DNA of 64,000 nt from an uncultured Nitrospiraceae bacterium. GTDB taxonomy: Bacteria > Nitrospirota > Thermodesulfovibrionia > Thermodesulfovibrionales > Dissulfurispiraceae. The position numbers and the translations under genes were made by a program. The notes below the pieces were generated by a model, which was not told the DNA's origin, did not search any database, and worked only from the letters and a program-made list of their open reading frames with translations. Below are positions 14,716 to 33,502 of the stretch, one piece after another. How positions within the stretch are numbered: the first letter of the stretch is position 1; every line of letters begins with the position of its first letter. Location of the stretch: positions 320,001 through 384,000 of the forward strand of contig CAVPIW010000006.1 of NCBI GenBank assembly GCA_963705105.1, read 5' to 3'.

Positions 14716-15642
14716 ATGGATCAACAACGACGTGCCCTGAACATGATGCGTTTCATCGCCCTATTCCTAACACTGCTTCTCACTGTCATGACCTTCAGCG
14801 TGAAGGATGCGAGCGCGACGGAGTTCGGTGGCGGCGCCTATCCCAACGGTGCCGAAGACTTCATGAGCGGCGCATTGCCGCCTCCGGGCACCTATTTCAT
14901 CAATTACCTCACCTACTACACGGCCGATGAGTTCAAGGGCCTCAAGGACCCTCTCGGCAGGGACGTGGACTTCAGCGTCGACGTGATCGCCAACACCTTC
15001 CGGCTCATTCACGTCACGAAGTACAAGATCCTCGGGGCAGACTGGGGGGTGCAAGCCTTTCTTCCTTTTGTGTATGTGGATGCTTCTTTCCCCTTCGGCA
15101 GCGATGACAAGTTCAACATCGGCGACATCATCATCGACCCCATTCTTTTAGGCTGGCACACCAAGAACTGGCATTTCGGAGCGGGTCTGGACATCTACAT
15201 CCCGACGGGCGATTTCGACAAGAACGATCTGGCCAATACGGGCAGAAACTACTGGACCTTCGAGCCGGTCTTCCTCGTCACATTCCTGAGCGACGGCGGG
15301 TTTGAAGTATCGAGCAAGTTCATGTACGACTTCAACACGGAGAACGACGATACCGACTACCAGTCCGGTCAGGAATTCCATTTCGATTACACCATCGGCT
15401 ACAAGATCAAGAACTGGAGCCTGGGAATCGGCGGCTATTATTACAAGCAGACGACGAACGACGAGATAAACGGAGAGAAGGTTCAACCCGACGGTTTCAT
15501 GGGGCGTGTCTTCGCGATCGGACCTCAGGTCAAATATGATTATAAGAACATGGCCTTCACCCTGAAGTACCAGAAGGAACTGGATGTCAAGAACAGGCCC
15601 GAAGGCGACAAGTTCTGGTTCAAGTTCATGTATGCCTTCTGA
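14716..15642 (+). CDS. Outer-membrane beta-barrel, SphA/COG4313 (MetA-pathway of phenol degradation) family
   Basis: Signal peptide, YPNGAE..GALPPPGTY, IGDIIIDPILLGWH, PTGDFD, YQSGQEFHFDY, terminal F. Confidence 0.8.
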   Translation: MDQQRRALNMMRFIALFLTLLLTVMTFSVKDASATEFGGGAYPNGAEDFMSGALPPPGTYFINYLTYYTADEFKGLKDPLGRDVDFSVDVIANTFRLIHVTKYKILGADWGVQAFLPFVYVDASFPFGSDDKFNIGDIIIDPILLGWHTKNWHFGAGLDIYIPTGDFDKNDLANTGRNYWTFEPVFLVTFLSDGGFEVSSKFMYDFNTENDDTDYQSGQEFHFDYTIGYKIKNWSLGIGGYYYKQTTNDEINGEKVQPDGFMGRVFAIGPQVKYDYKNMAFTLKYQKELDVKNRPEGDKFWFKFMYAF

Positions 15643-19724: not shown

Positions 19725-19751
19725 TAAAGCTATGGCTATAAGTCCCGATCA
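19725..19751 (+). promoter_or_regulatory. Candidate sigma28 promoter of receptor 1
   Basis: TAAA(19725-28)-N15-CCCGATCA(19744-51). Confidence 0.65.
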
Positions 19752-19795
19752 TATATGAGAGGCACTTTATGCGGAGAATCTGCCGACGGAGGTCA

Positions 19796-21811
19796 ATGAA
19801 CGCCATGGATATCGCTGCAAGGAATTCAGGGAGAATGATCGGGGCTTTTCTGCTCCCGGTTTTCATGTTCGCCATCTGGTTCAATCCCTGCGTCCTGCAT
19901 GCGCAGGATGCAGACAAACTTGTAGACATGAGCATGGAGGATCTCATTAACGTCAAGGTCTACGGTGCTTCAAAGTTCGAGCAGAGCCTCATCGACGCCC
20001 CGTCGTCAGTCACAATCATTACTGCCGACGACATCAGGAAATACGGCTACCGCACCCTCGCAGACCTCCTCAGGAGCGTCAGGAGCTTATCCGTCACCAA
20101 TGACAGGAACTATTCCTACCTGGGCGCCCGGGGCTTCGGCAGGACCGGTGATTACAACAGCCGCTTCCTCGTCGTCGTCGACGGGCACCGCATCAATGAC
20201 AATGTCTATGATTCGACGCTCTTCGGGACGGAGTTCATCATCGATGTAGACCTCATCGACAAGGTTGAGATCATCCGCGGGCCGGGCTCGTCCCTGTACG
20301 GCAATAACGCCTTTTTCGGCGTCGTCAACATCATCACGAGAAAGGCCCGGTCTATTGGACGCCCCGAGTTGTCGGCGGAGGCGGGGAGATATGATTCCTA
20401 CAAGGGAAGGGTGAGCTACGGGCATGACTTTGCCAACGGCGTGGAACTCGCATTGTCAGGCTCCCTCTATGACAGCAACGGCCAGGAGCGGCTCTTCTAC
20501 AAGGAATTTGACGACCCTTCGACGAACAACGGAGTGGCGGAGCACGGTGATTACGACCGGAATTACAGCCTCTTCGGCAATGTCCTCTATAAGGATGTGA
20601 CCCTCCAGGGCGCCTTCGTCTCGAGGACGAAGGGCATCCCGACGGGATCCTTCGACGCCGATTTCAATGAACGCCGGAACCAGACCACGGACGAACGGGG
20701 TTATGTCGATCTGAAGTACGAGCACGTCTTCGAGAATGAGCTCAGCATCATGGCGCGTCTGTACTATGATTGGTACTATTACAGAGCAACCTATGTTTAT
20801 TCCGGCATACAAAACAAAGACTCCTCAAGGGGCGAGTGGCTGGGCGGCGAGGTCCTGCTCCAGAAGAAACTCTTCGAAAAGCACAGGATCACCCTCGGCG
20901 CCGAGTATATTCACAATGCAAAGCAGGACCAGGGAAACTACAACCAGGATCCCTTTGAGCTCTTCACCGACGAACAGAGAGACTCCGACAAATGGGCCGT
21001 CTATGTCCAGGACGAGTTCCCGGTCCTCCCGAATCTGCTCCTCAATGCCGGTCTCCGCTACGACTATTACGAATCCTTCGGAGGCACCGCAAATCCCCGG
21101 CTGGCCCTTATCTATCGCCCCCTGCCGGCGACGATTTTCAAACTCCTCTACGGAACAGCCTTCAGGGCGCCCAATGCTTATGAGCTCTACTACACGGACT
21201 ACGGCTCCCAACGGGGCAACCCTGATCTGGATCCCGAGACGATCAGGACCTATGAGCTTGTCTACGAACAGTATATCGGCGACAACGTCCGTTTGACGGC
21301 ATCCGGCTTCTATTACACCGTTGATGACATCATCGTCCAGATCGAGGACCCCTCGGACGGGGTGTTAGTTTTTACGAATGCCGGTAAGGTGAAGGCGAAA
21401 GGCGTCGAGATCGGCGTCGAAGGAAGATGGGAAAACGGTATCAAGGGGAGATTCAGTTATACCTATCAGGACGCCGAGGACGACCAGACGGGAGAGAGGC
21501 CCATCAACTCGCCGGAGCATCAGGCAAAAGGCAACCTCATCATCCCGCTCTGGAAGGATAATGTCTTCGCCGGGCTTGAAGTCCTCTACACGGGCAAGAG
21601 AAAGACCCTCGCCGGAGATTATGTCGACGATTTCTTCGTCACGAATGTAACCCTTTTCAGCCAGAAGATCATGAAGGGGCTCGAAGTGTCCGCAAGCATC
21701 TATAACCTTTTCGACAAAAAGTACCGCGATCCTGCCGGCACGGAGCATCGCATGGACAGCATCGAGCAGGACGGGAGGAATTTCCGGGTCAAGGTGACCT
21801 ACGCTTTCTGA
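19796..21811 (+). CDS. TonB-dependent receptor-like protein 1 (plug + beta-barrel)
   Basis: Signal peptide; plug APSSVTIITADDI, VVVDG, KVEIIRGPGSSLYGNNAFFGVVNIITR; NPDLDPE; NLFDK; terminal F; start could be 19769. Confidence 0.92.
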   Translation: MNAMDIAARNSGRMIGAFLLPVFMFAIWFNPCVLHAQDADKLVDMSMEDLINVKVYGASKFEQSLIDAPSSVTIITADDIRKYGYRTLADLLRSVRSLSVTNDRNYSYLGARGFGRTGDYNSRFLVVVDGHRINDNVYDSTLFGTEFIIDVDLIDKVEIIRGPGSSLYGNNAFFGVVNIITRKARSIGRPELSAEAGRYDSYKGRVSYGHDFANGVELALSGSLYDSNGQERLFYKEFDDPSTNNGVAEHGDYDRNYSLFGNVLYKDVTLQGAFVSRTKGIPTGSFDADFNERRNQTTDERGYVDLKYEHVFENELSIMARLYYDWYYYRATYVYSGIQNKDSSRGEWLGGEVLLQKKLFEKHRITLGAEYIHNAKQDQGNYNQDPFELFTDEQRDSDKWAVYVQDEFPVLPNLLLNAGLRYDYYESFGGTANPRLALIYRPLPATIFKLLYGTAFRAPNAYELYYTDYGSQRGNPDLDPETIRTYELVYEQYIGDNVRLTASGFYYTVDDIIVQIEDPSDGVLVFTNAGKVKAKGVEIGVEGRWENGIKGRFSYTYQDAEDDQTGERPINSPEHQAKGNLIIPLWKDNVFAGLEVLYTGKRKTLAGDYVDDFFVTNVTLFSQKIMKGLEVSASIYNLFDKKYRDPAGTEHRMDSIEQDGRNFRVKVTYAF

Positions 21812-21901
21812 TCCGGCAGCGTGTGTGACGGAATGAACTGCACGGAGCCGATAATGAATAACAGGTTCTCCCGCAAGTCGAATAGGGGAGACATCCGCAG
21901 A

Positions 21902-22522
21902 ATGGTGACTGAGAAGACTGCCCGGCATGATCGCGGCTTCCTTTGCCATGAGCCCTTTGCCGCTTTTTCCGGGAATCGACGGAAAACGGGCATCGTCATG
22001 CTCATCCTCGTCATGATGATAGCCGCCGTGACGGCATTCCATGAGCGCTGTGCGAATGCCCAGGCGGCGCAGGAATATCAGGTCAAGGCGGCATTCATCT
22101 TCAACTTTGCCAAGTTCGTCGAATGGCCTCCGGATGCTCTCGCGGATAAGCAGGCGCCTGTCGTGCTCTGCATTCTCGGGAAAGACCCCTTCAGCGACGC
22201 CTTCGAACCCCTCAAAAAGAGGACCGTCGAGGGCAGGCGGTTCACCGTCAGGCAAATCAGCAGCGTTCAGGAAGTCGAACGGTGCCAGATGCTCTACATC
22301 AGCACATCCGAAAAGGACCGTTTGCCCCAGATCCTCAAGACCGTCAGGAACAGGCATATCCTGACCATCAGCGACATGAAGGGATTTTCAAAAGAAGGCG
22401 GCATGATCACTCTTGTCCGTGACCAGGAGAAGGTCACGATGGAGATCAATCTCGACATCGCCCGTCAGGCCGATCTCAAGATCAGCTCCCAGCTCCTGAA
22501 GCTCGCCACGATCGTCAAATAG
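21902..22522 (+). CDS. YfiR family (DUF4154) periplasmic protein 1
   Basis: [40 protein letters not shown]...LKISSQLLKLA; start uncertain. Confidence 0.9.
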   Translation: MVTEKTARHDRGFLCHEPFAAFSGNRRKTGIVMLILVMMIAAVTAFHERCANAQAAQEYQVKAAFIFNFAKFVEWPPDALADKQAPVVLCILGKDPFSDAFEPLKKRTVEGRRFTVRQISSVQEVERCQMLYISTSEKDRLPQILKTVRNRHILTISDMKGFSKEGGMITLVRDQEKVTMEINLDIARQADLKISSQLLKLATIVK

Positions 22523-22566
22523 ACCTTCCCTTTGGTCGAAAGGGCAGCGTCTATCTTACTCACTGT

Positions 22567-22779
22567 ACCTTAACGTTGCAACACAGTCCCGGGAAAGGCG
22601 GGGCGAGGCGCCGAAAACCTTGCTGCGGCGACACCTGTATCGAAAGGCAAGACGAATTATAAACCAATGGTCGATGACACAAAGAGTGGATTCCTGAAAC
22701 ACGAAGCTGACAATGCGTATCGTCGCCTTCAGCAAGGCTTTGAGGCGCCTCGCCCCGCCTTATTATGCAACGGCAAGGT
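22567..22779 (+). repeat. Long-hairpin repeat family A, subtype I
   Basis: Nested inverted repeats ACCTT/AAGGT, GTTGCA/TGCAAC, AAGGCGGGGCGAGGCGCC/GGCGCCTCGCCCCGCCTT, CCTTGCTG.GGCGAC/GTCGCC.TCAGCAAGG. Confidence 0.92.
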
Positions 22780-22783
22780 GAAC

Positions 22784-22810
22784 TCAAGAATGACCCTGAA
22801 TTGCCGACAT
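22784..22810 (+). promoter_or_regulatory. Candidate sigma28 promoter of the receptor 2/3-yfiR-kinase-DGC/PDE operon
   Basis: TCAA(22784-87)-N15-GCCGACAT(22803-10). Confidence 0.6.
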
Positions 22811-22855
22811 AATACTAATGGTGAATAGCGGCATTTTCACAGATCGGCAGTCAAG

Positions 22856-24928
22856 GTGATGAAGAGCAAGGGAATTCATATGATGCAGAGCCCATCTCAG
22901 AGGGGCCTGTACAGCCAGATCTTTCTCCTGCTGTTCCTGGGTATTTTCATGAACTACCTCACCCCGTGCAGTTACGCAGCCGGGAGTGACCTGACGACCC
23001 TGAGCATCGAGGACTTGATGAACATCGAGGTCACCTCGGTATCGAAAAGGGCTCAGCCCCTTTCAGATTCTGCCACGGCCATCTTCGTCATCACCCAGGC
23101 GGACATACGGCGCTCGGGGGTGACGAGCATCCCTGAAGCGTTGCGCATGGCGCCGGGCATCGAGGTGGCTCACATCGACGCCAACAAGTGGGCGATCACA
23201 GCCAGGGGATTCAACGGACGCTTCGCCAACAAACTCCTCGTGCTGATCGACGGGCGAACCGTCTATTCGCCTCTTTTTTCGGGAGTCTTCTGGGATGTGC
23301 AGGACACGATGATGGAGGACATCGACAGGATCGAGGTGATCAGGGGGCCGGGCGCCTCGCTGTGGGGCGCCAATGCCGTGAACGGTGTCATCAACATCAT
23401 TACGAAGAATGCCGCAGAGACGGCAGGAGGCCTCATCAGCGCGGGAGGCGGGACGGAGGAGCGATACTTCGGCGGCATGCGCTACGGCTGGGACCTTGGA
23501 AATAACGCCTATCTCAGGGTCTATGGGAAACATTTCAACCGTGACGGTTTTGTCGACGCCCAGGGACAGGACACGGCCGACGGGTGGTATCAGTCGCGGG
23601 GAGGATTCCGGTTGGACTGGGAGAAGTCGGAACGCGACTCCTTTACGGTCCAGGGTGATATATACAGCGGCAAAATAGGCGGGACGCTTCTTATCCCCAC
23701 CCCCAATCCTCCTTATGGGGTAAGCTCCAGCGGGAAGACCAGCGTGTCCGGGGGGAATGTCCTGGCTCTCTGGCGCCGCAATGTCTCGGAAATGTCCGAT
23801 ACGACGCTGCAGATATACTACGACAGGACGAAACGGAGTGATGAGATCATTGAAGAAAGGCGTTATACGATCGATATCGATTTCCAGCACCACCTGATCA
23901 TCGGGGAGCGCAATGAGGTCATATGGGGGCTTGGATACCGGTATACGAAAGACGATTTCAAGGGAGACATAATCGTCTCGCTCGATCCGCCGGAGAAAGG
24001 AGTCAATCTCTTCAGCGCCTTCATCCAGGACGAGATCACTCTCATAAAAGACAGGCTGAGGCTGACGGTAGGGTCGAAATTCGAGCACAACGACTTCACA
24101 GGTTTTGAGGTGCAGCCGACGGGGCGCATTCTCTGGTCTCCCCGGGACGGGCACAGGGTCTGGGCTGCGGTATCGAGGGCTGTCAGGACTCCCTCACGGG
24201 CTGAAGACGATGCCATTGTGCGATCACTGGCTATTCCACCCAACAGCGGTCTCAATCCCTCCCCCTTTCCTGTGTTTGTCGAGTTCCGTGGCTCAAAGGA
24301 TTTCGAATCGGAGACCCTCATCGCCTACGAGGCGGGATACCGGGTGCAGCCCGACGACCGATTATCCGTCGACCTCGCCGTTTTCTACAATAAGTACGAC
24401 AAGCTCAGAACCGCCGATAACCCGGGGGTGTCCGTCCGGCTGTCACCGCCTCCGGCACGGGTAAACGTGTCTGCAGAGGCGGACAATAAAGCCAAGGGGG
24501 AGACCTATGGAGCCGAGCTCGCCGTGGACTGGCAGGCCCTCCCGTGGTGGCGCCTCAAGGCTGCATACACCTATCTGCAGGTGCAGATTCACAAGGTCGA
24601 TGGGAGCGGTGACGTGACCGCCGAGGCGACGGAAGGAGATGTCCCCCATAATCAGTTCTCCCTCCGCTCATTGATGAAACTGGGGAAGAGTGTCGAGTTC
24701 GACGCGTGGTTTCGTTACGTCGACAATCTTCCGGGTTCGGGGATCAAGAGTTATGTGACCTGCGACGCCCGTCTTGCCTGGAAACCCCTGCGGGACCTGG
24801 AGATCGCCCTTGTCGGGCAGAACCTTCTCGATAATCATCATCCCGAACAGGGTCTTGAGCCGCTGTTCTCCAATCAGTCGACAGAGGTGCCGCGGGGTAT
24901 CTACGGGAAGGTCACGTGGAAGTTTTAG
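22856..24928 (+). CDS. TonB-dependent receptor-like protein 2
   Basis: DLTTLSIEDLMNIEVTSVSK; LLVLIDGR; RIEVIRGPGASLWGANAVNGVINIITK; terminal WKF. Confidence 0.92.
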   Translation: MMKSKGIHMMQSPSQRGLYSQIFLLLFLGIFMNYLTPCSYAAGSDLTTLSIEDLMNIEVTSVSKRAQPLSDSATAIFVITQADIRRSGVTSIPEALRMAPGIEVAHIDANKWAITARGFNGRFANKLLVLIDGRTVYSPLFSGVFWDVQDTMMEDIDRIEVIRGPGASLWGANAVNGVINIITKNAAETAGGLISAGGGTEERYFGGMRYGWDLGNNAYLRVYGKHFNRDGFVDAQGQDTADGWYQSRGGFRLDWEKSERDSFTVQGDIYSGKIGGTLLIPTPNPPYGVSSSGKTSVSGGNVLALWRRNVSEMSDTTLQIYYDRTKRSDEIIEERRYTIDIDFQHHLIIGERNEVIWGLGYRYTKDDFKGDIIVSLDPPEKGVNLFSAFIQDEITLIKDRLRLTVGSKFEHNDFTGFEVQPTGRILWSPRDGHRVWAAVSRAVRTPSRAEDDAIVRSLAIPPNSGLNPSPFPVFVEFRGSKDFESETLIAYEAGYRVQPDDRLSVDLAVFYNKYDKLRTADNPGVSVRLSPPPARVNVSAEADNKAKGETYGAELAVDWQALPWWRLKAAYTYLQVQIHKVDGSGDVTAEATEGDVPHNQFSLRSLMKLGKSVEFDAWFRYVDNLPGSGIKSYVTCDARLAWKPLRDLEIALVGQNLLDNHHPEQGLEPLFSNQSTEVPRGIYGKVTWKF

Positions 24929-24959
24929 TCTTCCACTTTGCAAGTCATAGGCATCAAAC

Positions 24960-26999
24960 ATGAGGAGAGGACACATTTTCATCATTATCGTTCTAATGGG
25001 CAGTATGATGAAAGGTCTGTTCATGCCTGCTCTGGCTGCGGCATACCGGACTCTGGGGGATCTGACTGCCCTGAGCATCGAGGAGCTGATGAACATCGAG
25101 GTCACCTCGGTATCGAAAAGGGCGCAACCCCTTTCAGATACCGCATCGGCAATCTTCGTCATAACCCAGGAGGATATTCGACGCTCAGGTGTGACGAGCA
25201 TCCCCGAAGCGTTGCGCATGGCGCCGGGCCTTGAGGTTGCCCGCATCGATGCGAACAAATGGGCCATCACCGCCAGGGGTTTCAACGGACGCTTCGCCAA
25301 CAAACTCCTTGTACTCATAGATGGGCGAACCGTTTACACACCTCTTTTTTCGGGTGTTTTCTGGGATGAGCAGGACACCTTTCTGGAAAACATCGAGAGG
25401 ATCGAGGTGATCAGGGGCCCGGGCGCTTCCCTGTGGGGTGCAAATGCCGTCAACGGAGTCATCAATATCATCACGAAGAAGGCCGGAGAAACAACGGGCG
25501 GCCTCTTCAGCGCAGGAGGCGGGACGGAAGAGCGGTACTTCGGTGGTGTGCGCTACGGCTGGGATCTCGGAAATAACGCATATCTCAGGGTCTATGGGAA
25601 ACATTTCAACCGGAGCGGCTTCGTCGACGCCCAGGGACAGGACGCGGCCGACGGCTGGTACCAGTCGAGAGCCGGGTTCAAGCTCGACTGGGAAAAGTCG
25701 GAACGCGATTCCTTTACTGTCCAGGGAGAAACATATAAAGGCAAGTCTGGTTTCACTCTGTTTGTCCCTATATCCGAGCCCCCTTACTCGACGAGCTTCA
25801 GCGAGAAGGCCGACCTGTCTGGAGGGCACCTGTTGGCCCGATGGCGACATGTCCACTCGGACACTTCCGATATGACCCTGCAGGCCTACTATGACAGGAG
25901 CAAAGGGACTGACAGCACATTAGAAGAGAGACAGGATACGATCGATGTGGACTTCCAGCATCACCTGCTCGTGCATGAGCGCCATGAAATCATCTGGGGG
26001 CTGGGATACCGGTACTACAGGGATCATACTCAGGGCGGCTCGTTTGTCAGCATCGAGCCGCCGGACAAGGGATTGCATCTCTTCAGCGCCTTCATCCAGG
26101 ATGAGATCACCCTCGTAAAAGACAGGCTCATGCTCACAGTGGGCTCCAAATTCGAGCACAACGACTTCACCGGGTTCGAGGTGCAGCCAACGGCACGCAT
26201 TCTCTGGTCTCCTCATGAGAAACAGAGGGTCTGGGCGGCCGTATCACGGGCTGTCAGGACGCCGTCGCGGTCTGACGAGGGGGCGGTTGCACAATCACTG
26301 GCCCTCCCGCCCAACAGCGGTCTCAATCCCGCTCCTTTTCCGGTCTTTGTCGAGTTCCGGGGATCCAATGACTTCGAATCGGAGACGCTCATCGCCTACG
26401 AGGCCGGATACAGGGTGCAGCCAGGCAACGGGTTGTCTGTCGATCTTGCCGTTTTTTACAATAAATACGACAAACTCAGAACGACCGACAACCCGGTGGC
26501 ATCTGTCAGGCTGTCTCCGCCTCCGCCACGTGTGAACGTAAGTGTAACGGCGGATAACAAGGCGAAGGGAGAGACCTACGGCGCCGAGTTTGCCGTTGAC
26601 TGGCAGGTCTTTCCCTGGTGGCGCCTCAAGGCTTCCTATACCTATCTGCAAATGCAAATTCACCGGATCGAGGGAAGCAGTGACGTGGGAGCGGAGGCGG
26701 CCGAAGGTGATGACCCTCACAATCAGTTTTCTCTCCGTTCATTGATGGACTTGGGGAGAAACGTCGAGTTCGACGCATGGTTTCGCTATGTCGACAACCT
26801 CCCGAGCCTCGGGATCAGGAGTTATGTGACCTGCGACGCCCGCATCGCCTGGAGGTCGCTGAAAAACGTGGAGATCGCCCTTGTCGGGCAGAATTTGCTC
26901 GACAACCACCATCCGGAACAGGGGCTTGATACGCTGCTTTCCAATCAGTCGACGGAAGTGCCGCGCGGCGTATACGGGAAGATCACATGGAAATTCTAA
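24960..26999 (+). CDS. TonB-dependent receptor-like protein 3 (close paralogue of 2)
   Basis: Same motifs as receptor 2 with long identical stretches; terminal WKF. Confidence 0.92.
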   Translation: MRRGHIFIIIVLMGSMMKGLFMPALAAAYRTLGDLTALSIEELMNIEVTSVSKRAQPLSDTASAIFVITQEDIRRSGVTSIPEALRMAPGLEVARIDANKWAITARGFNGRFANKLLVLIDGRTVYTPLFSGVFWDEQDTFLENIERIEVIRGPGASLWGANAVNGVINIITKKAGETTGGLFSAGGGTEERYFGGVRYGWDLGNNAYLRVYGKHFNRSGFVDAQGQDAADGWYQSRAGFKLDWEKSERDSFTVQGETYKGKSGFTLFVPISEPPYSTSFSEKADLSGGHLLARWRHVHSDTSDMTLQAYYDRSKGTDSTLEERQDTIDVDFQHHLLVHERHEIIWGLGYRYYRDHTQGGSFVSIEPPDKGLHLFSAFIQDEITLVKDRLMLTVGSKFEHNDFTGFEVQPTARILWSPHEKQRVWAAVSRAVRTPSRSDEGAVAQSLALPPNSGLNPAPFPVFVEFRGSNDFESETLIAYEAGYRVQPGNGLSVDLAVFYNKYDKLRTTDNPVASVRLSPPPPRVNVSVTADNKAKGETYGAEFAVDWQVFPWWRLKASYTYLQMQIHRIEGSSDVGAEAAEGDDPHNQFSLRSLMDLGRNVEFDAWFRYVDNLPSLGIRSYVTCDARIAWRSLKNVEIALVGQNLLDNHHPEQGLDTLLSNQSTEVPRGVYGKITWKF

Positions 27000-27002
27000 A
27001 GA

Positions 27003-27599
27003 ATGAGAACTGACATGTCGGGATACGACAAACTCCGGCGACTCATCCCGGCGGTTCTTATCACCGCGCTCTGTTTCGTCGTCACGTCGACTATGCCCGG
27101 GAACGTATCGGCCCAGGACAGAGAGATGATTACTGACGAATACCGGATCAAGGCGGCGTTTCTCTATAATTTCGCGAAATTTGTCGAGTGGCCGGCCGGT
27201 GCATTCAAAGACAACCGTTCTCCGCTCATGATCTGCATCGTTGGGAAAGACCCCTTCGGAGCTGCTCTGAGTGAGATAAGAGACAAAACCGTGGGAGGAA
27301 GGACTATCGCTGTCAGGCATGTCAGGGATACCGGTGAAATCGAGAATTGCCATATCCTCTTCATCAGCGAATCCGAGAAGGAAATCGTGGCGCAGCATAT
27401 TGCAAGGGGTGTCAGGAATAGAGCAATACTGTCCGTCGGTGACACGCGGGGCTACGCCCAGAAAGGGGTCGTCATCAACATGATCATCGTCAACAGTAAG
27501 GTTGGCTTCGAGATCAACACCGATGCGGCCCAGCGCGCCGGTCTCATAATCCATTCACAGTTGCTCAAGCTGGCGAAGATTATCAAGGAGAAAGCCTGA
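27003..27599 (+). CDS. YfiR family (DUF4154) periplasmic protein 2
   Basis: Signal peptide; [35 protein letters not shown]...SQLLKLA. Confidence 0.92.
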
Positions 27600-30505
27600 T
27601 GCGGTTCTTGAACAACCTGTCGGTCAAGCAGAAAATAACTGCGATCATCATGATCGCATGCACGTGTGTGCTCATGATGTCTGCCTGCGCATTCATCATT
27701 CGCGACCTTCTCAGCGAACCGGCTGAGATGGTCGACAAGGTCGATACGATCGCCTCCGTGGTCGGCGCCAACACGACGGCAGCGCTGACCTTCAACGACC
27801 GGAAGGCCGCCGAGGAGACCCTCTCCGCACTGTCGACGGAACCCCATGTTATGAATGCCGTCATTTACACGCGGGAGGGCGAGGAATTCGCCCGGTATTC
27901 GGCGGATTTCGAAAGAGAACGCCGGGACTCCTGGCGGGACCATCTCGAGGCAAACCTCATTCGGGAGGGCCATCGTTTTCACGGAGATCACATTGATTTC
28001 ATCAAGACAATAACCCTGGATCAAGATGCGATCGGAACGATTTACATCAAGATGAGCCTCCAGGAGCTCTACCAACGGATGGCCCTGTATGTCGTGACCA
28101 CTATAGTGAGCGTCATTGTCCTGCTGATCGTCGCATACGTCATCTCTCTCCGTCTCCAGCAGGTGATAACGTCTCCCATCTCCGTAATGTCGGAGACGAT
28201 GAAGGTCGTGTCGGAGAGGAAGGACTATACCGTCCGTGCCGTCAAGGCAAGTGACGATGAGATCGGCACCCTCGTCGACGGTTTCAACGAGATGCTCGGA
28301 CAGATAGAAGAACGGGATGAACAACTGAAAAGGCACCGGGAACACCTGGAGGAGGAAGTCGCTCTCCGCACGGCAGAGCTTTCCGAGGCGAATAGTGAAT
28401 TGGCTCTGAATTATGCGGAGCTCAAGACGGCAAAGGAGGCCGCTGAGGCTGCAAACCGCGCAAAATCACAGTTCCTGGCGAACATGAGCCACGAGATCAG
28501 GACCCCGATGAACGGCGTACTCGGGATGACGGAACTGCTCCTGAAAACGGACCTGACGGAGAGACAGAAGAAGTTCACCGAAACCGTCCATTCCTCGGCG
28601 GAGTCGCTCCTGAATATTCTGAACGATATCCTCGACTTTTCAAAGATCGAAGCCGGCAGGCTCGAACTCGAAATCGTCCCCTTCAACCTCCACGAGGTCA
28701 TCGAGGATGTGGCGGACATCTTTGCGAGACATGCCGAGACAAAGGGGGTGGAGCTCATATGCCACATCGACAGGGAAGTCCCTGGTTACGTAATGGGCGA
28801 CCCTGTGAGGATGCGGCAGATCCTCGTGAATCTGGTGGGCAATGCCATCAAGTTCACGGAGGAGGGCGAGATCCTGGTCAGGGTGGATACCGCCGAAATA
28901 CGAGATGGCCTGTCGTTCGTCCGCTTTGATGTGCGCGACACGGGCATCGGCATCGATCAGGAGGCGAGGGAGACCATATTCGATGCCTTCTCCCAGGCCG
29001 ACGGCTCGACGACCCGGAAATACGGGGGCACAGGCCTGGGGCTGACGATCACGAAACAGCTCGTCGGGATGATGGGTGGAGAGATAAGCGTTGAGAGTGA
29101 AGTCGGAAGGGGCTCGACATTCCGGATCATTATGCCGGTGACGGCGGTCCAGGGGGACGAGGCCCTGCAGGGGCATGCGGAAGAACGGCTCAGGAGCTGG
29201 AAAGTGCTGATCGTCGACGACAACAGGACGAACCGTACCATCCTCAGTCAGTTGTTTGAGTCATGGGGGATGGGGTGCCGAGCCGCCGACGGCGGACAGG
29301 CAGCCATCGAGATGCTTGATACCGCCGTGGCGCAACATGAACCGTATGATCTCGCCGTTCTGGACATGCATATGCCCCATATGGACGGGCTGGAGCTCAC
29401 ACGGAAAATCAGGGCCAATGCGGCCCTGGAGGGACTCCGGCTCATGATGCTGACGTCTTCGAGCTCGCTTGAGGCGGCGGAAGAGCTCAACAGGAACGGC
29501 ATCGAGTACATCATGAGCAAGCCCGTCAGGCAGTCATACCTGTACAACTGCATCGTCGCCATGGCCGGTTCAGGAAGGGGCGCCCAGGGGTATCGGAAAC
29601 AGGCGCAGGGAACGGTTCAGGCGGAGGAGTTTCCCCTTTCCGTGCTGCTGGCCGAGGACAATCCGGTCAATCAGGTCGTATCCGTCGGTATGCTGGAGGG
29701 CATAGGATGCCGTGTCGACGTCGCAAACAACGGACGCGAGGCCTTCAACGCCCTTTCCAGGATGTCCTATGACGTCGTTTTCATGGATTGCCAGATGCCC
29801 GTCATGGATGGATTTGAGGCGACGAAGGCGATCAGGGAGCGGGAGCGGTCCTCGGGCAACGGCGGCAACTCCCCAACTCTCCATGTGCCGATCGTCGCCC
29901 TGACCGCCCACGCCATGAGAGGTGACCGTGAAGCCTGTCTCGCCGCGGGCATGGATGACTACCTGTCGAAACCCTTCAGTCAGCAGCAGCTTGTTGCCGT
30001 GCTGAAGAAATGGTTCACCGGGAGAGTCCCGGAGAAGTCCGAAGACAAACAGCCCGGGAATCACGGGAGTGAGACCGTTTTGTCGATCCCCGGGAAACGG
30101 ATGAAAGAAGAAAGCCCTTCGGCGGCGGGGAAATCGGATGAGCCCGTTCAGGAACCGATCGACCGGATCGTGCTTGATACCATCTCTTCCCTGCAGAGGC
30201 CCGGCTCTCCCGATATCCTGAAGCGGGTGATCACCCTGTTCATCGACGACTCAGCCGTCCTCGTGCGGAAACTCCGAGAAGGCATCCATGCGGGAGACCC
30301 CGCGGTGGTGTTCAGGGCCGCTCACACAATGAAATCGAGCAGCGCGAACGTGGGCGCTTTCCGTTTGTCTTCACTCTGCAAGGAACTGGAAATGATGGGC
30401 AGGAACGGCTCTCTCCTGGAGGCCGGCGAGCTGATGTCACAAATCGACAACGAATATGGTCCCGTTCTGAAAGCTCTTGCGAGAGAGATTGAGAGGCGAG
30501 GATGA
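27599..30505 (+). CDS. Hybrid sensor kinase: TM-CHASE8(YfiN-like)-TM-HAMP-HisKA-HATPase-REC-REC-HPt
   Basis: [17 protein letters not shown] periplasmic motif; [37 protein letters not shown]; two receivers (LDMHMP, MDCQMP); AHTMKSSS. Confidence 0.92.
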
Positions 30506-33009
30506 AGGAAGACCGCTCGGCAAGAGAGACCGCCCTTATTCTCGTCGTCGATGACGACCTCGCCATGCGGCTTCTTGTCAGGGAATCCCTCGAGATAGCC
30601 GGTTTTCAGGTCGAGGACGCCGGTAACGGCCTTGAAGGTCTCGGCATCTTCAGGGAGGTTCAGCCCGACCTCGTCCTCTTGGATGTCATGATGCCCGACA
30701 TGGACGGGTTTCAGGTCAGCAGGACCCTCCGGAGCATTCCCGGCGGCGACAGAATCCCGATTGTCATGATGACGGGGCTCGATGACATAGAATCGATCAA
30801 CAGGGCCTACGAGGCGGGCGCCACCGACTTCATCACGAAGCCTTTCAACTGGCTTGTTCTCGGACACCGTGTCCGGTACATGCTCCGTGCGAGCGCCGCC
30901 TTCAACGAACTGAAGAGGAACGGCGCGAAAACCCGGGCCCTTCTGAACGCCATTCCCGACCGCATCTTCAGGATAGACCGGGAGGGTACTTTTCTCGAAT
31001 TCAAGGGACCTGCGGGCCCGGACCTCCTGATGGCGCCGGATGAATTCATCGGAAGAAACGTGAGGGACGTTTTGCCGCTTGAGACGGGGACACTGATCAT
31101 GGAGGCCATGCAAAGTGCCTTCGGGAGAGGTGACATCCGGACTATCGAGTATCATGTCCCCGCTGCGGGAATCAACCGTTTCTACGAGGCGCGGATCGTC
31201 GTCAGCGGTGAGGACGAGGTCATCGCGATCGTGCGGGATGTGACGGAGCAGAAGGAGGCTGACAAAGCCCTGAAGGAGAGCGAGGAGAGGTACCGGGACC
31301 TTTTTGAAAATGCCAACGACCTCATCCAGAGCGTCTCGCCGGACGGACGCTTCCTCTACGTGAACAAGGCCTGGCGGGACACGCTCGGGTACAGCCCTGA
31401 GGAGTTAGAGAATCTGACCATATTCAATGTCCTGAGTCCCGAGTGCCAGCCTCACTGCGCCGAGGTTTTTCAGCGCGTGATGGCGGGCGAGGATGTGGGA
31501 ATCATCGAAACCGAATTCATGACAAGGGACGGCAAGAGGATCACCATCGAAGGCAGCGTCAACTGTAAGGTCGTCAACGGCACCGTCGTCTCCACAAGAG
31601 GAATATTCCGGAACATCACCGAACGAAAGCAGGCAGAGGAAGAGATCATACGTCTTGCTTATTATGACAGCCTGACGGGCCTGCCGAACCGGCTTCTCTT
31701 TAAAGACCGCCTCAGGCAGTCGATTACGTATGCCCAACGGTACAAGAAGATGCTTGCGACCCTTTTCCTTGACCTTGACCGCTTCAAGAGGATCAACGAC
31801 ACACTCGGGCACAGTATCGGAGACCGTTTGCTTAAGGGTGTCGCAGAACGCCTGTCCCACACCCTGCGCCAGAGTGATTCCGTCGGCAGGGACGGTTCGG
31901 AAGATTTCGGGTCCACAGTGGCAAGACTGGGCGGTGACGAGTTCACGATCCTCCTCATGGAGATCGACAGCGTTCAGGATGTCGCCAAAGTGGCACGGCG
32001 CATCCTCCAGGACATGGCAAAGCCGTTCCACCTCGACGGCAGTGAGGTATTCATCACGACCAGCATCGGCATAACGATTTTTCCTTACGACGGCGGCGAT
32101 GTCGACGCCCTCCTGAAGAATGCCGATATTGCGATGTACCATGCGAAGGACCAGGGGAGGAACAATTTTCAGTTCTACACCCAGTCAATGAATGCGACGG
32201 CCTTCGAGCGCCTCGTGCTCGAAAATAATATCCGCAAAGCTATTGAACGAGATGAGTTCGAGCTCTTCTATCAGCCGCAGATTTCCGTCTCCAACGGGGA
32301 GATCGTCGGCATGGAGGCCCTGATCAGATGGAACCATCCTGAGCTTGGAATGATCTCGCCTGCAGAATTCATTCCCCTTGCGGAGGAATCGGGACTCATC
32401 CTGCCCCTCGGTGAATGGGTGCTGAGGAGGGCCTGCGGGCAGATCAGGCAACTGCACGACCGGGGATTCTCTGACCTGCGCATTTCGGTCAACCTGTCGG
32501 TGCACCAACTGAGGCAACAGGGCCTCGTCAAGACAATCAAGGGCATCGTCGAACAATACTATCTCGACGCGAGGCGTCTCGAATTGGAAATCACTGAGAG
32601 CGCCATCATGAAGAACGCCGAAGCGACCGTCGAGACGCTCATGTCGCTGAAGTCAATGGGTCTGAGGATCTCCATCGATGATTTCGGCACGGGATACTCT
32701 TCACTCAGTTATCTGAAGCGGTTCCCGATCGATACCCTCAAGATCGACCGCTCCTTCATCAAGGACATCCCCAATGACCCCGACAATGCCGCCATTACGC
32801 GGGCGATCATCGCCATGGCTCACAGTCTCAATCTCAAGGTTGTCGCCGAGGGGGTGGAGACGCCGGCTCAATTCGCTTTTCTGAAGAACGAAGGGTGTGA
32901 CGAAATGCAGGGATTCCTGCTGTGCAGACCTCTGCCGTTCCAGAAAATCGGGGAGCTTTTGACCGAAAAGAGGGTTTTTACCACGGCCAACGTCAGCGCA
33001 GGGAATTGA
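30502..33009 (+). CDS. REC-PAS-PAS-GGDEF-EAL c-di-GMP enzyme
   Basis: LDVMMP receiver; two [40 protein letters not shown]. Confidence 0.95.
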
Positions 33010-33264: not shown

Positions 33265-33288
33265 AATATAATGCAACTTTGTGAGTTT

Positions 33289-33502
33289 ACCCCGTAGTTG
33301 TATAAAAAGGCGGGGCGAAGCGCCTCAAAGCCTTGCTGAAGGCGACGATACGCCTCGTCAGTTTCGTGTTTCAGGATTCCACTCTTTGTGTCATCGACCA
33401 TTCGCGTATAGTTCATCTCTCGTTTTGATACAGGTGTCGCCGCAGCAAGGTTTTCGGCGCATACACCCCGCCTTTGCCGGGAGTATATTGCAACGATAAA
33501 GT
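33289..33502 (-). repeat. Long-hairpin repeat family A, subtype I (reverse orientation)
   Basis: Reverse complement aligns end to end with 22567-22779, including loop ATGGTCGATGACACAAAGAGTGGA.TCCTGAAACACGAA. Confidence 0.92.

Follow-up and report, generated by a model that had tools for sequence, protein, structure and literature searches.

A cassette of plugged β-barrels, YfiR-like proteins and a CHASE8 kinase as a candidate trans-envelope signalling system

How might a signal cross the cell envelope where plugged β-barrels, YfiR-like periplasmic proteins, a hybrid sensor kinase and a cyclic di-GMP (c-di-GMP) enzyme are encoded side by side? This question is raised by a locus of an uncultured Nitrospiraceae bacterium (Dissulfurispiraceae in the GTDB taxonomy) that we analyzed in a stretch of 64,000 nucleotides, here called the window (assembly GCA_963705105.1, contig CAVPIW010000006.1, positions 320,001 to 384,000). 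Seven open reading frames (ORFs) on the + strand span positions 19769-33009 of the window in the order R1, Y1, R2, R3, Y2, HK, and RR, with intergenic gaps of 9, 333, 31, 3, -1, and -4 bp. The locus is a member of a gene cassette that is catalogued in NCBIfam but, in the literature searched, uncharacterized. Our best reading, to which we give a probability of about one half, is that YfiR is handed over between barrel and sensor in a ligand-gated manner.

Seven genes from outer-membrane barrels to a c-di-GMP enzyme

A preliminary description of this DNA had proposed the order receptor1-yfiR1, receptor2-receptor3-yfiR2-hybrid kinase-c-di-GMP enzyme with the last four genes 3 bp apart or overlapping, and ORFs, Pfam domains, and gap lengths bear this out. 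Its seven genes stand, but the start that it gave for the locus (19725) has to be moved to 19769, where the first ORF begins.

R1 (19769-21811, +; 680 amino acids), R2 (22856-24928, +; 690 amino acids), and R3 (24960-26999, +; 679 amino acids) each carry the Plug and TonB_dep_Rec barrel domains of Pfam and show the fold of TonB-dependent transporters, with a plug within a 22-strand barrel and a C-terminal Phe. R2 and R3 are tandem paralogues (77% protein and 80% DNA identity) that belong to the TOL_0244 family NF053590 (718 and 729 bits; cut-off 645 bits), while R1 stays below this cut-off with 167 bits, is 25% identical to R3, and represents a second, different subfamily without curated model. 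All three score far below every NCBIfam/TIGR cut-off for iron, haem, or B12 receptors, and Pfam finds no STN or other signalling domain on them. Ahead of the plug, R1 has a SMEDL-type N-terminal segment; in R3, a short helix (IEELM) near the N-terminus comes before a stretch that resembles a TonB box. In an AlphaFold2 model of mature R3 (72 sequences; predicted local distance difference test score 90.6), which comprises the plug and 22 barrel strands by our own count, the helix lies at mature residues 13-17 and precedes the TonB-box position. Residue L43 of R3 is conserved in 71 of the 72 aligned sequences, and the best fold match of the model is Cir of E. coli (TM score 0.80, 19% identity).

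The two YfiR-like periplasmic proteins, Y1 (21821-22522, +) and Y2 (27003-27599, +), are 48% identical and both match PF13689 (E 1e-50 for Y1), beyond which the ESM Atlas gave nothing further. Both pass NF053591 (150.6 and 146.9 bits; cut-off 125 bits) and both fail the equivalog of true YfiR, NF053586 (55 and 45 bits; cut-off 85 bits). Y1 has a hydrophobic segment at residues 56-74, and its true start is probably located more 3'; the start codons of R1 and R2, too, may sit 3' of the longest-ORF starts. Y2 matches the structures of Pseudomonas aeruginosa YfiR at E 2e-7 and carries Cys78/Cys116, but the second cysteine pair of that protein (Cys145-Cys152) is missing, with Ala and Asn at the equivalent positions in our own mapping on the structure alignment. 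Counterparts of F162, E163, L181, and L183 of P. aeruginosa YfiR are conserved, again by our own mapping on the alignment.

HK (27599-30505, +; 968 amino acids) is an inner-membrane hybrid sensor kinase in which two transmembrane segments flank the sensor domain (TM-CHASE8-TM-HAMP-HisKA-HATPase-REC-REC-HPt). Pfam places CHASE8 at residues 45-150 (PF17152, 63 bits; cut-off 27 bits), followed by HAMP, HisKA, HATPase, 2 REC domains, and Hpt, and the protein passes NF053592 (202.1 bits; cut-off 194 bits). The preliminary description had seen a YfiN-like motif followed by HAMP in the periplasmic part of this kinase, and we find it as AALTF at residues 61-65, with F65 conserved in 116 of 120 aligned sensors; the periplasmic domain is indeed CHASE8 and not of another type. 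The phosphorelay residues H298, D589, D730, and H909 and the ATP-binding boxes are intact.

RR (30502-33009, +; 835 amino acids) is a cytoplasmic REC-PAS-(PAS)-GGDEF-EAL protein, with its Pfam domains given as [16 protein letters not shown]. D61, GGDEF at position 477, and the [12 protein letters not shown] and EGVE motifs are intact, and no RxxD inhibitory site is apparent in our own reading of the sequence. Judged by these motifs, RR is probably a c-di-GMP cyclase/phosphodiesterase controlled by phosphorylation.

Gene overlap and natural fusions make it very likely that HK phosphorylates RR. The counterparts of both proteins form one chain, CHASE8-kinase-REC-HPt-REC-GGDEF-EAL, in 6 ORFs (confirmed by Pfam for L071), and a direct CHASE8-GGDEF-EAL form is found in 8 related ORFs; together with the intact phosphorelay residues, this supports the wiring of the kinase to a c-di-GMP enzyme as first described. 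The single-chain proteins of about 1700 amino acids (loci L071, L074, L079, L081, L084, and L108) occur in cultured Methylomonas, among others, and would make a convenient test system. At the periplasmic end, homology to YfiBNR argues strongly that YfiR binds the CHASE8 domain.

Conservation of the cassette and of the receptor N-terminus

The loci compared here were chosen for their similarity and do not represent independent samples. Genome loci found with R3 (80) include 78 with at least 600 nt downstream; in 64 of these yfiR directly follows the receptor gene and in 70 it lies no more than 3 kb away. Of 73 loci, 68 contain a CHASE8-like sensor at a distance of ≤5 kb. The yfiR-bearing loci cover 9 named phyla. 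Relatives of R1 (37 metagenome loci at ≥44% identity, 33 of them informative) have yfiR as the next gene in 32 cases. The co-occurrence of these receptors with yfiR elsewhere, on which the preliminary description had staked its proposal, thus extends across phyla as a tight linkage. It is nearly lost among more distant receptors: 26 weak matches yielded 13 informative loci (10 others had no detected receptor ORF and 3 too little flank), just 1 with yfiR nearby. Among 151 genomes of the phylum, including the one studied here, 11 have a protein above the NF053590 cut-off and 23 one above that of PF13689, and a receptor lies ≤1.5 kb from 25 of 28 yfiR genes; the three exceptions belong to one genus. 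In one genus, L206 and L207 (and L127) hold yfiR and a CHASE8 kinase with no receptor near, and the Tyr of the conserved EY..KA start of YfiR is lost.

The output side varies and comprises simple kinases, hybrid kinases, CHASE8-GGDEF-EAL proteins, and single-chain kinase-GGDEF-EAL proteins; of 71 informative loci, 35 encode a GGDEF or EAL protein in the sensor gene itself or immediately behind it. R1-type and R3-type receptors occur together only in the Dissulfurispiraceae locus among all loci compared, and two receptor types with two adaptors on one kinase suggest the integration of two inputs. Two unusual arrangements were also seen. At L157:12618-13568, a CHASE8-HAMP protein without output domain is encoded between yfiR and a full CHASE8 kinase, following two receptors of different subfamilies. 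L101:817-9343 combines an R3-type receptor, an outer-membrane efflux protein, a phosphonate-binding-type protein, and a hybrid kinase without yfiR, possibly featuring a third type of adaptor.

The first clue to where YfiR might contact the barrel comes from Acidobacteria, where three R1-type receptors precede a protein with both PF13689 and PF03544, i.e., a fusion of YfiR and TonB_C (L165:6047-6922, L166:2145-3038, and L167:3073-3942). Both domains are present in 120 of the 120 homologues listed (of 615 matches), which sources label merely as "TonB family protein" and of which a few names point to Terriglobales. A model of the fusion shows two confident domains joined by a loose linker that match YfiR and the C-terminal domains of TonB, including TonB bound to BtuB, FoxA, and FhuA. 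Of 301 genomes of one order, 14 encode the fusion (loci L271-L284), and in 13 of these its gene directly follows that of an R1-type receptor. CHASE8 genes were not detected in the 14 regions (three of which are cut by contig ends), so that receptor and YfiR stay together there without a neighboring sensor. Since the fused TonB_C domain is of the type that binds TonB boxes, the fusion suggests the periplasmic N-terminus of the receptor as the contact of YfiR. Our own TonB_C profile did not pick up a separate tonB in the cassette loci; as it also missed the TonB_C genes of the genome studied here, this negative counts for little. Other apparent fusions were set aside: four longer YfiR fusions are singletons that resemble frameshift or assembly artefacts (a search with one query protein, thus weak evidence of absence), and the 592 additional residues of a 1256-amino acid receptor ORF at L082 have no Pfam domain.

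The second clue comes from a sister cassette. Where related receptors lack a neighboring yfiR, they are often accompanied by an ABC_sub_bind protein (PF04392) and by a HAMP sensor in whose periplasmic part Pfam does not recognize CHASE8. In this arrangement, receptor and ABC_sub_bind protein are combined with either a HAMP sensor kinase or a GGDEF-EAL protein, and a permease of the ATP-binding cassette (ABC) type was not noted. No NCBIfam model was passed by the members scanned. Our own sensor profile, which spans the transmembrane and HAMP parts, matches these sensors as well, but Pfam does not call them CHASE8, and we do not count them as such. Loci of this kind are common in the phylum (L202, G000:C2:55818-60657; L203, G000:C9:119324-124989; L212-L248).

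Among 171 distinct receptors scored for a SLEEL-type helix ahead of the TonB box, the helix is present in 100 of 107 YfiR-adjacent and 1 of 28 ABC-adjacent receptors, and in 3 of 18 with short flanks. ABC-adjacent receptors mostly have an L-F/Y/L-x-E-E/I segment instead, and plain importers have neither. The R1 family alone shows the same, with 8 of 8 ABC-adjacent members lacking the helix. In trees built without the segment, ABC-partnered receptors appear in three places (107 rows; 51 rows, 3 changes), and constraining 13 of them to one clade is rejected (approximately unbiased test, p-AU 1.8e-13). The N-terminal segment tracks the type of partner and has switched in at least two lineages, and we regard this co-switching as a lead with support, not as proof.

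Two further comparisons of receptor and YfiR gave no direction. Inter-protein covariation in 72 paired rows (effective number 48) reached a top z of 6.9 compared to 5.4-6.6 in three shuffles and was uninformative, and the mirror-tree correlation of 0.75 is as expected from shared descent.

Readings of the receptor-YfiR contact

In the reading that we prefer, the three plugged barrels would bind extracellular ligands, and because R1 and R2/R3 are different subfamilies, these would be of at least two kinds. The N-terminal segment of the receptor, a SLEEL-type helix plus a TonB-box-like strand, would serve as docking site for the YfiR-like adaptor. In ordinary transporters, ligand binding changes the exposure of the TonB box, and here it would alter the exposure of the N-terminal segment so that the adaptor moves between this segment and the CHASE8 domain of HK. 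Phosphate would then pass from H298 via a REC aspartate and H909 to D61 of RR (the [14 protein letters not shown] protein), which would make or degrade c-di-GMP. The docking of YfiR on the receptor N-terminus and the passing of a signal without net import are the weakest part of this chain. One surface of P. aeruginosa YfiR serves YfiB and, by prediction, YfiN (PMC4655355), and the matching residues of the YfiR-like adaptor are conserved here by our own mapping, as is the Phe of the sensor.

The third clue, the distribution of energizing motors, fits a role in signalling. The genome is 99.4% complete, and its sole ExbD match is tolR within tolQ-tolR-tolA-tolB, while two other MotA/ExbB matches are MotA beside MotB; no ExbB or ExbD was thus found outside tol-pal in this genome. 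The cluster itself holds none of the genome's 10 OmpA-domain (PF00691), 2 TonB_C, and 1 ExbD matches and, by ORFs and Pfam, no pair of extracytoplasmic function (ECF) sigma and anti-sigma factors, in line with the absence of YfiB/OmpA lipoprotein, tonB, exbBD, and ECF/anti-sigma genes noted initially. All six genes of the genome that pass PF00593 adjoin signalling proteins: three are R1-R3, two are accompanied by ABC_sub_bind protein and sensor kinase, and one encodes a FecR-TPR-barrel protein beside a CHASE2 cyclase. This last gene (L285:6028-11765, G000:C9:352028-357765; 1147 amino acids), a FecR-TPR-TonB-barrel protein directly 3' of a CHASE2-adenylate/guanylate cyclase, forms a candidate barrel-linked pair of its own. 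Among 22 yfiR-bearing relatives, 7 have a single ExbD/TolR match and one incomplete genome has none.

The strongest competitor, which we judge rather unlikely, is that the barrels import the signal before it is sensed. They would be TonB-driven importers of a peptide, lipid, or metabolite that binds YfiR and shifts its grip on CHASE8, with the N-terminal helix merely positioning the adaptor at the barrel exit. Several observations point this way and weigh against signalling without import. The receptors retain a full plug and the TonB-box-like stretch, and the genome encodes an orphan TonB_C protein with N-terminal hydrophobic anchor, located on contig C8 (L204:2474-3361, G000:C8:50474-51361) without exbB or exbD beside it, that is a candidate partner of the receptors. 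TolQ/TolR may energize TonB, as in the cross-talk known from E. coli, and import may therefore be possible via a TolQR-energized orphan TonB. Moreover, 14 of the 22 yfiR-bearing relatives have 2-3 ExbD/TolR matches, and the ABC_sub_bind protein of the sister cassette is a two-lobed binding protein that suits import followed by sensing. YfiR itself has half of a periplasmic-binding-protein fold (PMC4655355; structure 3LKV was matched), and the protein of P. aeruginosa binds vitamin B6 and Trp (PMC4887326). Yet this binding is weak, in the ten-millimolar range according to the same paper, and a single-lobe YfiR has no closing cleft. Furthermore, no dedicated ExbB/ExbD was found here (with one ExbD/TolR match in each of genomes G138, G091, and G103), and no inner-membrane importer gene is noted beside the cluster among the ORFs of the window.

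The comparative clues have their own weak points, which likewise count against a hand-over at the barrel. The co-change of segment and partner rests on 2-3 independent events, the SLEEL motif and the receptor groups were defined after viewing the sequences, and the helix is kept in 6 of 18 receptors without nearby partner. The YfiR-TonB_C fusion is confined to one lineage, probably as one event, and may mean that YfiR needs TonB_C to reach the receptor box; in addition, five other acidobacterial genomes each hold several YfiR-like matches, so that distant sensors may act. Linkage is also not complete, with 8 of the 78 R3 relatives lacking yfiR within 3 kb and 3 of the 28 yfiR genes in the phylum lacking a receptor nearby.

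Barrels that need no ligand and whose folding, number, or distance to the inner membrane titrates YfiR, similar to the report of wall stress by YfiB, would have the YfiBNR precedent and the location of the cluster downstream of an mla-like operon on the same strand (with MlaC by Pfam) in their favor. We consider such an envelope or assembly sensor improbable, as two receptor subfamilies and tandem paralogues in one cassette suggest ligand diversity and Y2 lacks the Cys145-Cys152 pair of the P. aeruginosa protein. A further reading, in which the barrels act as ordinary nutrient importers whose genes are under the control of a YfiR-CHASE8 system or share its transcript, without physical contact, is hardly more plausible: receptor-less YfiR-CHASE8 pairs do exist and TOL_0244, up sevenfold on C28 alkane, was interpreted as importer (PMC6304351, where "YfiR" has 0 occurrences), but the receptor-yfiR order is fixed across 9 named phyla, outputs are often c-di-GMP enzymes and not transcription factors, receptor and YfiR-TonB_C persist without nearby sensor, and the N-terminal segment tracks the partner.

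Known systems, neighboring features, and implications

The preliminary description knew of no mechanistic characterization of this architecture, and our literature searches, mostly without subscription journals, did not reveal any work on a mechanism that joins receptor, YfiR, and sensor, nor a paper that names CHASE8 together with TonB. It is not unrecognized, however, because the trio is covered by three families in NCBIfam release 20.0: NF053590 (TOL_0244 receptor), NF053591 (TOL_0243 YfiR-like), and NF053592 (YfiR-associated kinase), whose cut-offs are passed by R2 and R3, Y1 and Y2, and HK, respectively. Compared to this trio, the locus described here adds the R1 subfamily with its own YfiR, a tandem receptor, and a c-di-GMP output.

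YfiBNR of P. aeruginosa and E. coli, to which HmsCDE of Yersinia is a related system, resembles the cassette in the YfiR-fold periplasmic protein, the CHASE8-HAMP sensor with Phe motif, and the c-di-GMP output. F65 of HK corresponds to the conserved Phe of AAVVF, the proposed YfiR-binding motif of YfiN (PMC3375315). Unlike YfiBNR, the cassette has no YfiB or other OmpA-domain lipoprotein, its YfiR-like proteins fail NF053586 and lack the Cys145-Cys152 pair, its sensor is a hybrid kinase with HPt, the GGDEF domain is encoded by a separate next gene, and plugged barrels stand at the input position. The cassette works like YfiBNR in its middle, yet it is not a YfiBNR member: it has no YfiB, and its output is a kinase.

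As in FecA-FecR-FecI, a TonB-dependent receptor would signal inward via an N-terminal periplasmic element, but in place of a signalling domain there are just a helix and strand of about 15 residues, and in place of anti-sigma and ECF factors a soluble adaptor and a phosphorelay. TonB-dependent importers (Cir, BtuB, FepA, and PfeA) share the Plug and 22-strand barrel (TM scores 0.74-0.80), but at 14-19% identity and without the additional N-terminal helix, which is not seen ahead of the box in plain receptors. OmpS of Alcanivorax dieselolei, a TonB-dependent receptor reported to sense alkanes and stated to be 40.3% similar to TOL_0244 (PMC6304351), was considered as a characterized member. Its listed neighbors encode a kinase of the pfeS type, a response regulator, and, on the opposite strand, a secreted protein, with no YfiR-labelled gene among them (PMC5174103, PMC9788540); OmpS thus probably lies outside the cassette. 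A single-domain binding protein of Rhodothermus was also rejected as a member, since it matches the YfiR fold but fails the family profile; in its paper (PMC10805632), "TonB" and "YfiR" have 0 occurrences.

Other features of the window lie outside the signalling system. Most of the 333-bp gap between Y1 and R2 is occupied by a copy of a dispersed repeat of about 220 bp that resembles a miniature inverted-repeat transposable element (22567-22786, no strand assigned) and has internal inverted repeats. A second copy lies inverted at 33282-33502, and the genome has 183 matches of ≥150 nt (about 68-89% identity among the matches printed), with several copies bordered by TTAA-like ends. No Rfam match was obtained for the repeat or otherwise. 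Scans for promoters (9 compared to 6.4 ± 2.7) and terminators (14 compared to 11.1 ± 3.2) were at chance level. An Rrf2-family gene lies downstream of the cluster, and a solitary gene for a Phenol_MetA_deg outer-membrane channel (PF13557) is found at 14716-15642, 3' of an alanyl-tRNA-synthetase-like ORF.

In 2012, Malone and colleagues reported YfiR/YfiN cores that lack YfiB and whose outputs are of the kinase, HPt, GGDEF-EAL, or methyl-accepting chemotaxis protein (MCP) type, and left open what feeds them (PMC3375315, where "TonB" has 0 occurrences). As the source of this input, the cassette is a strong candidate in many phyla. From the comparative clues, the putative contact can be reduced to a short peptide of the receptor and a small soluble protein, and Methylomonas and Thalassolituus offer cultured hosts. 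If the N-terminal peptide of the barrel docks YfiR, then many presumed iron or B12 importer genes would be signal receptors wired to kinases and c-di-GMP. More tentatively still, a large clade of barrels with TonB-receptor fold may be pure surface receptors that signal without TonB-ExbB-ExbD via a swappable N-terminal peptide, which would dock a soluble adaptor (YfiR or ABC_sub_bind) that gates a kinase or c-di-GMP enzyme. If true, many phyla would possess a general route for signalling across the envelope that is distinct from the cell-surface signalling of the Fec type.

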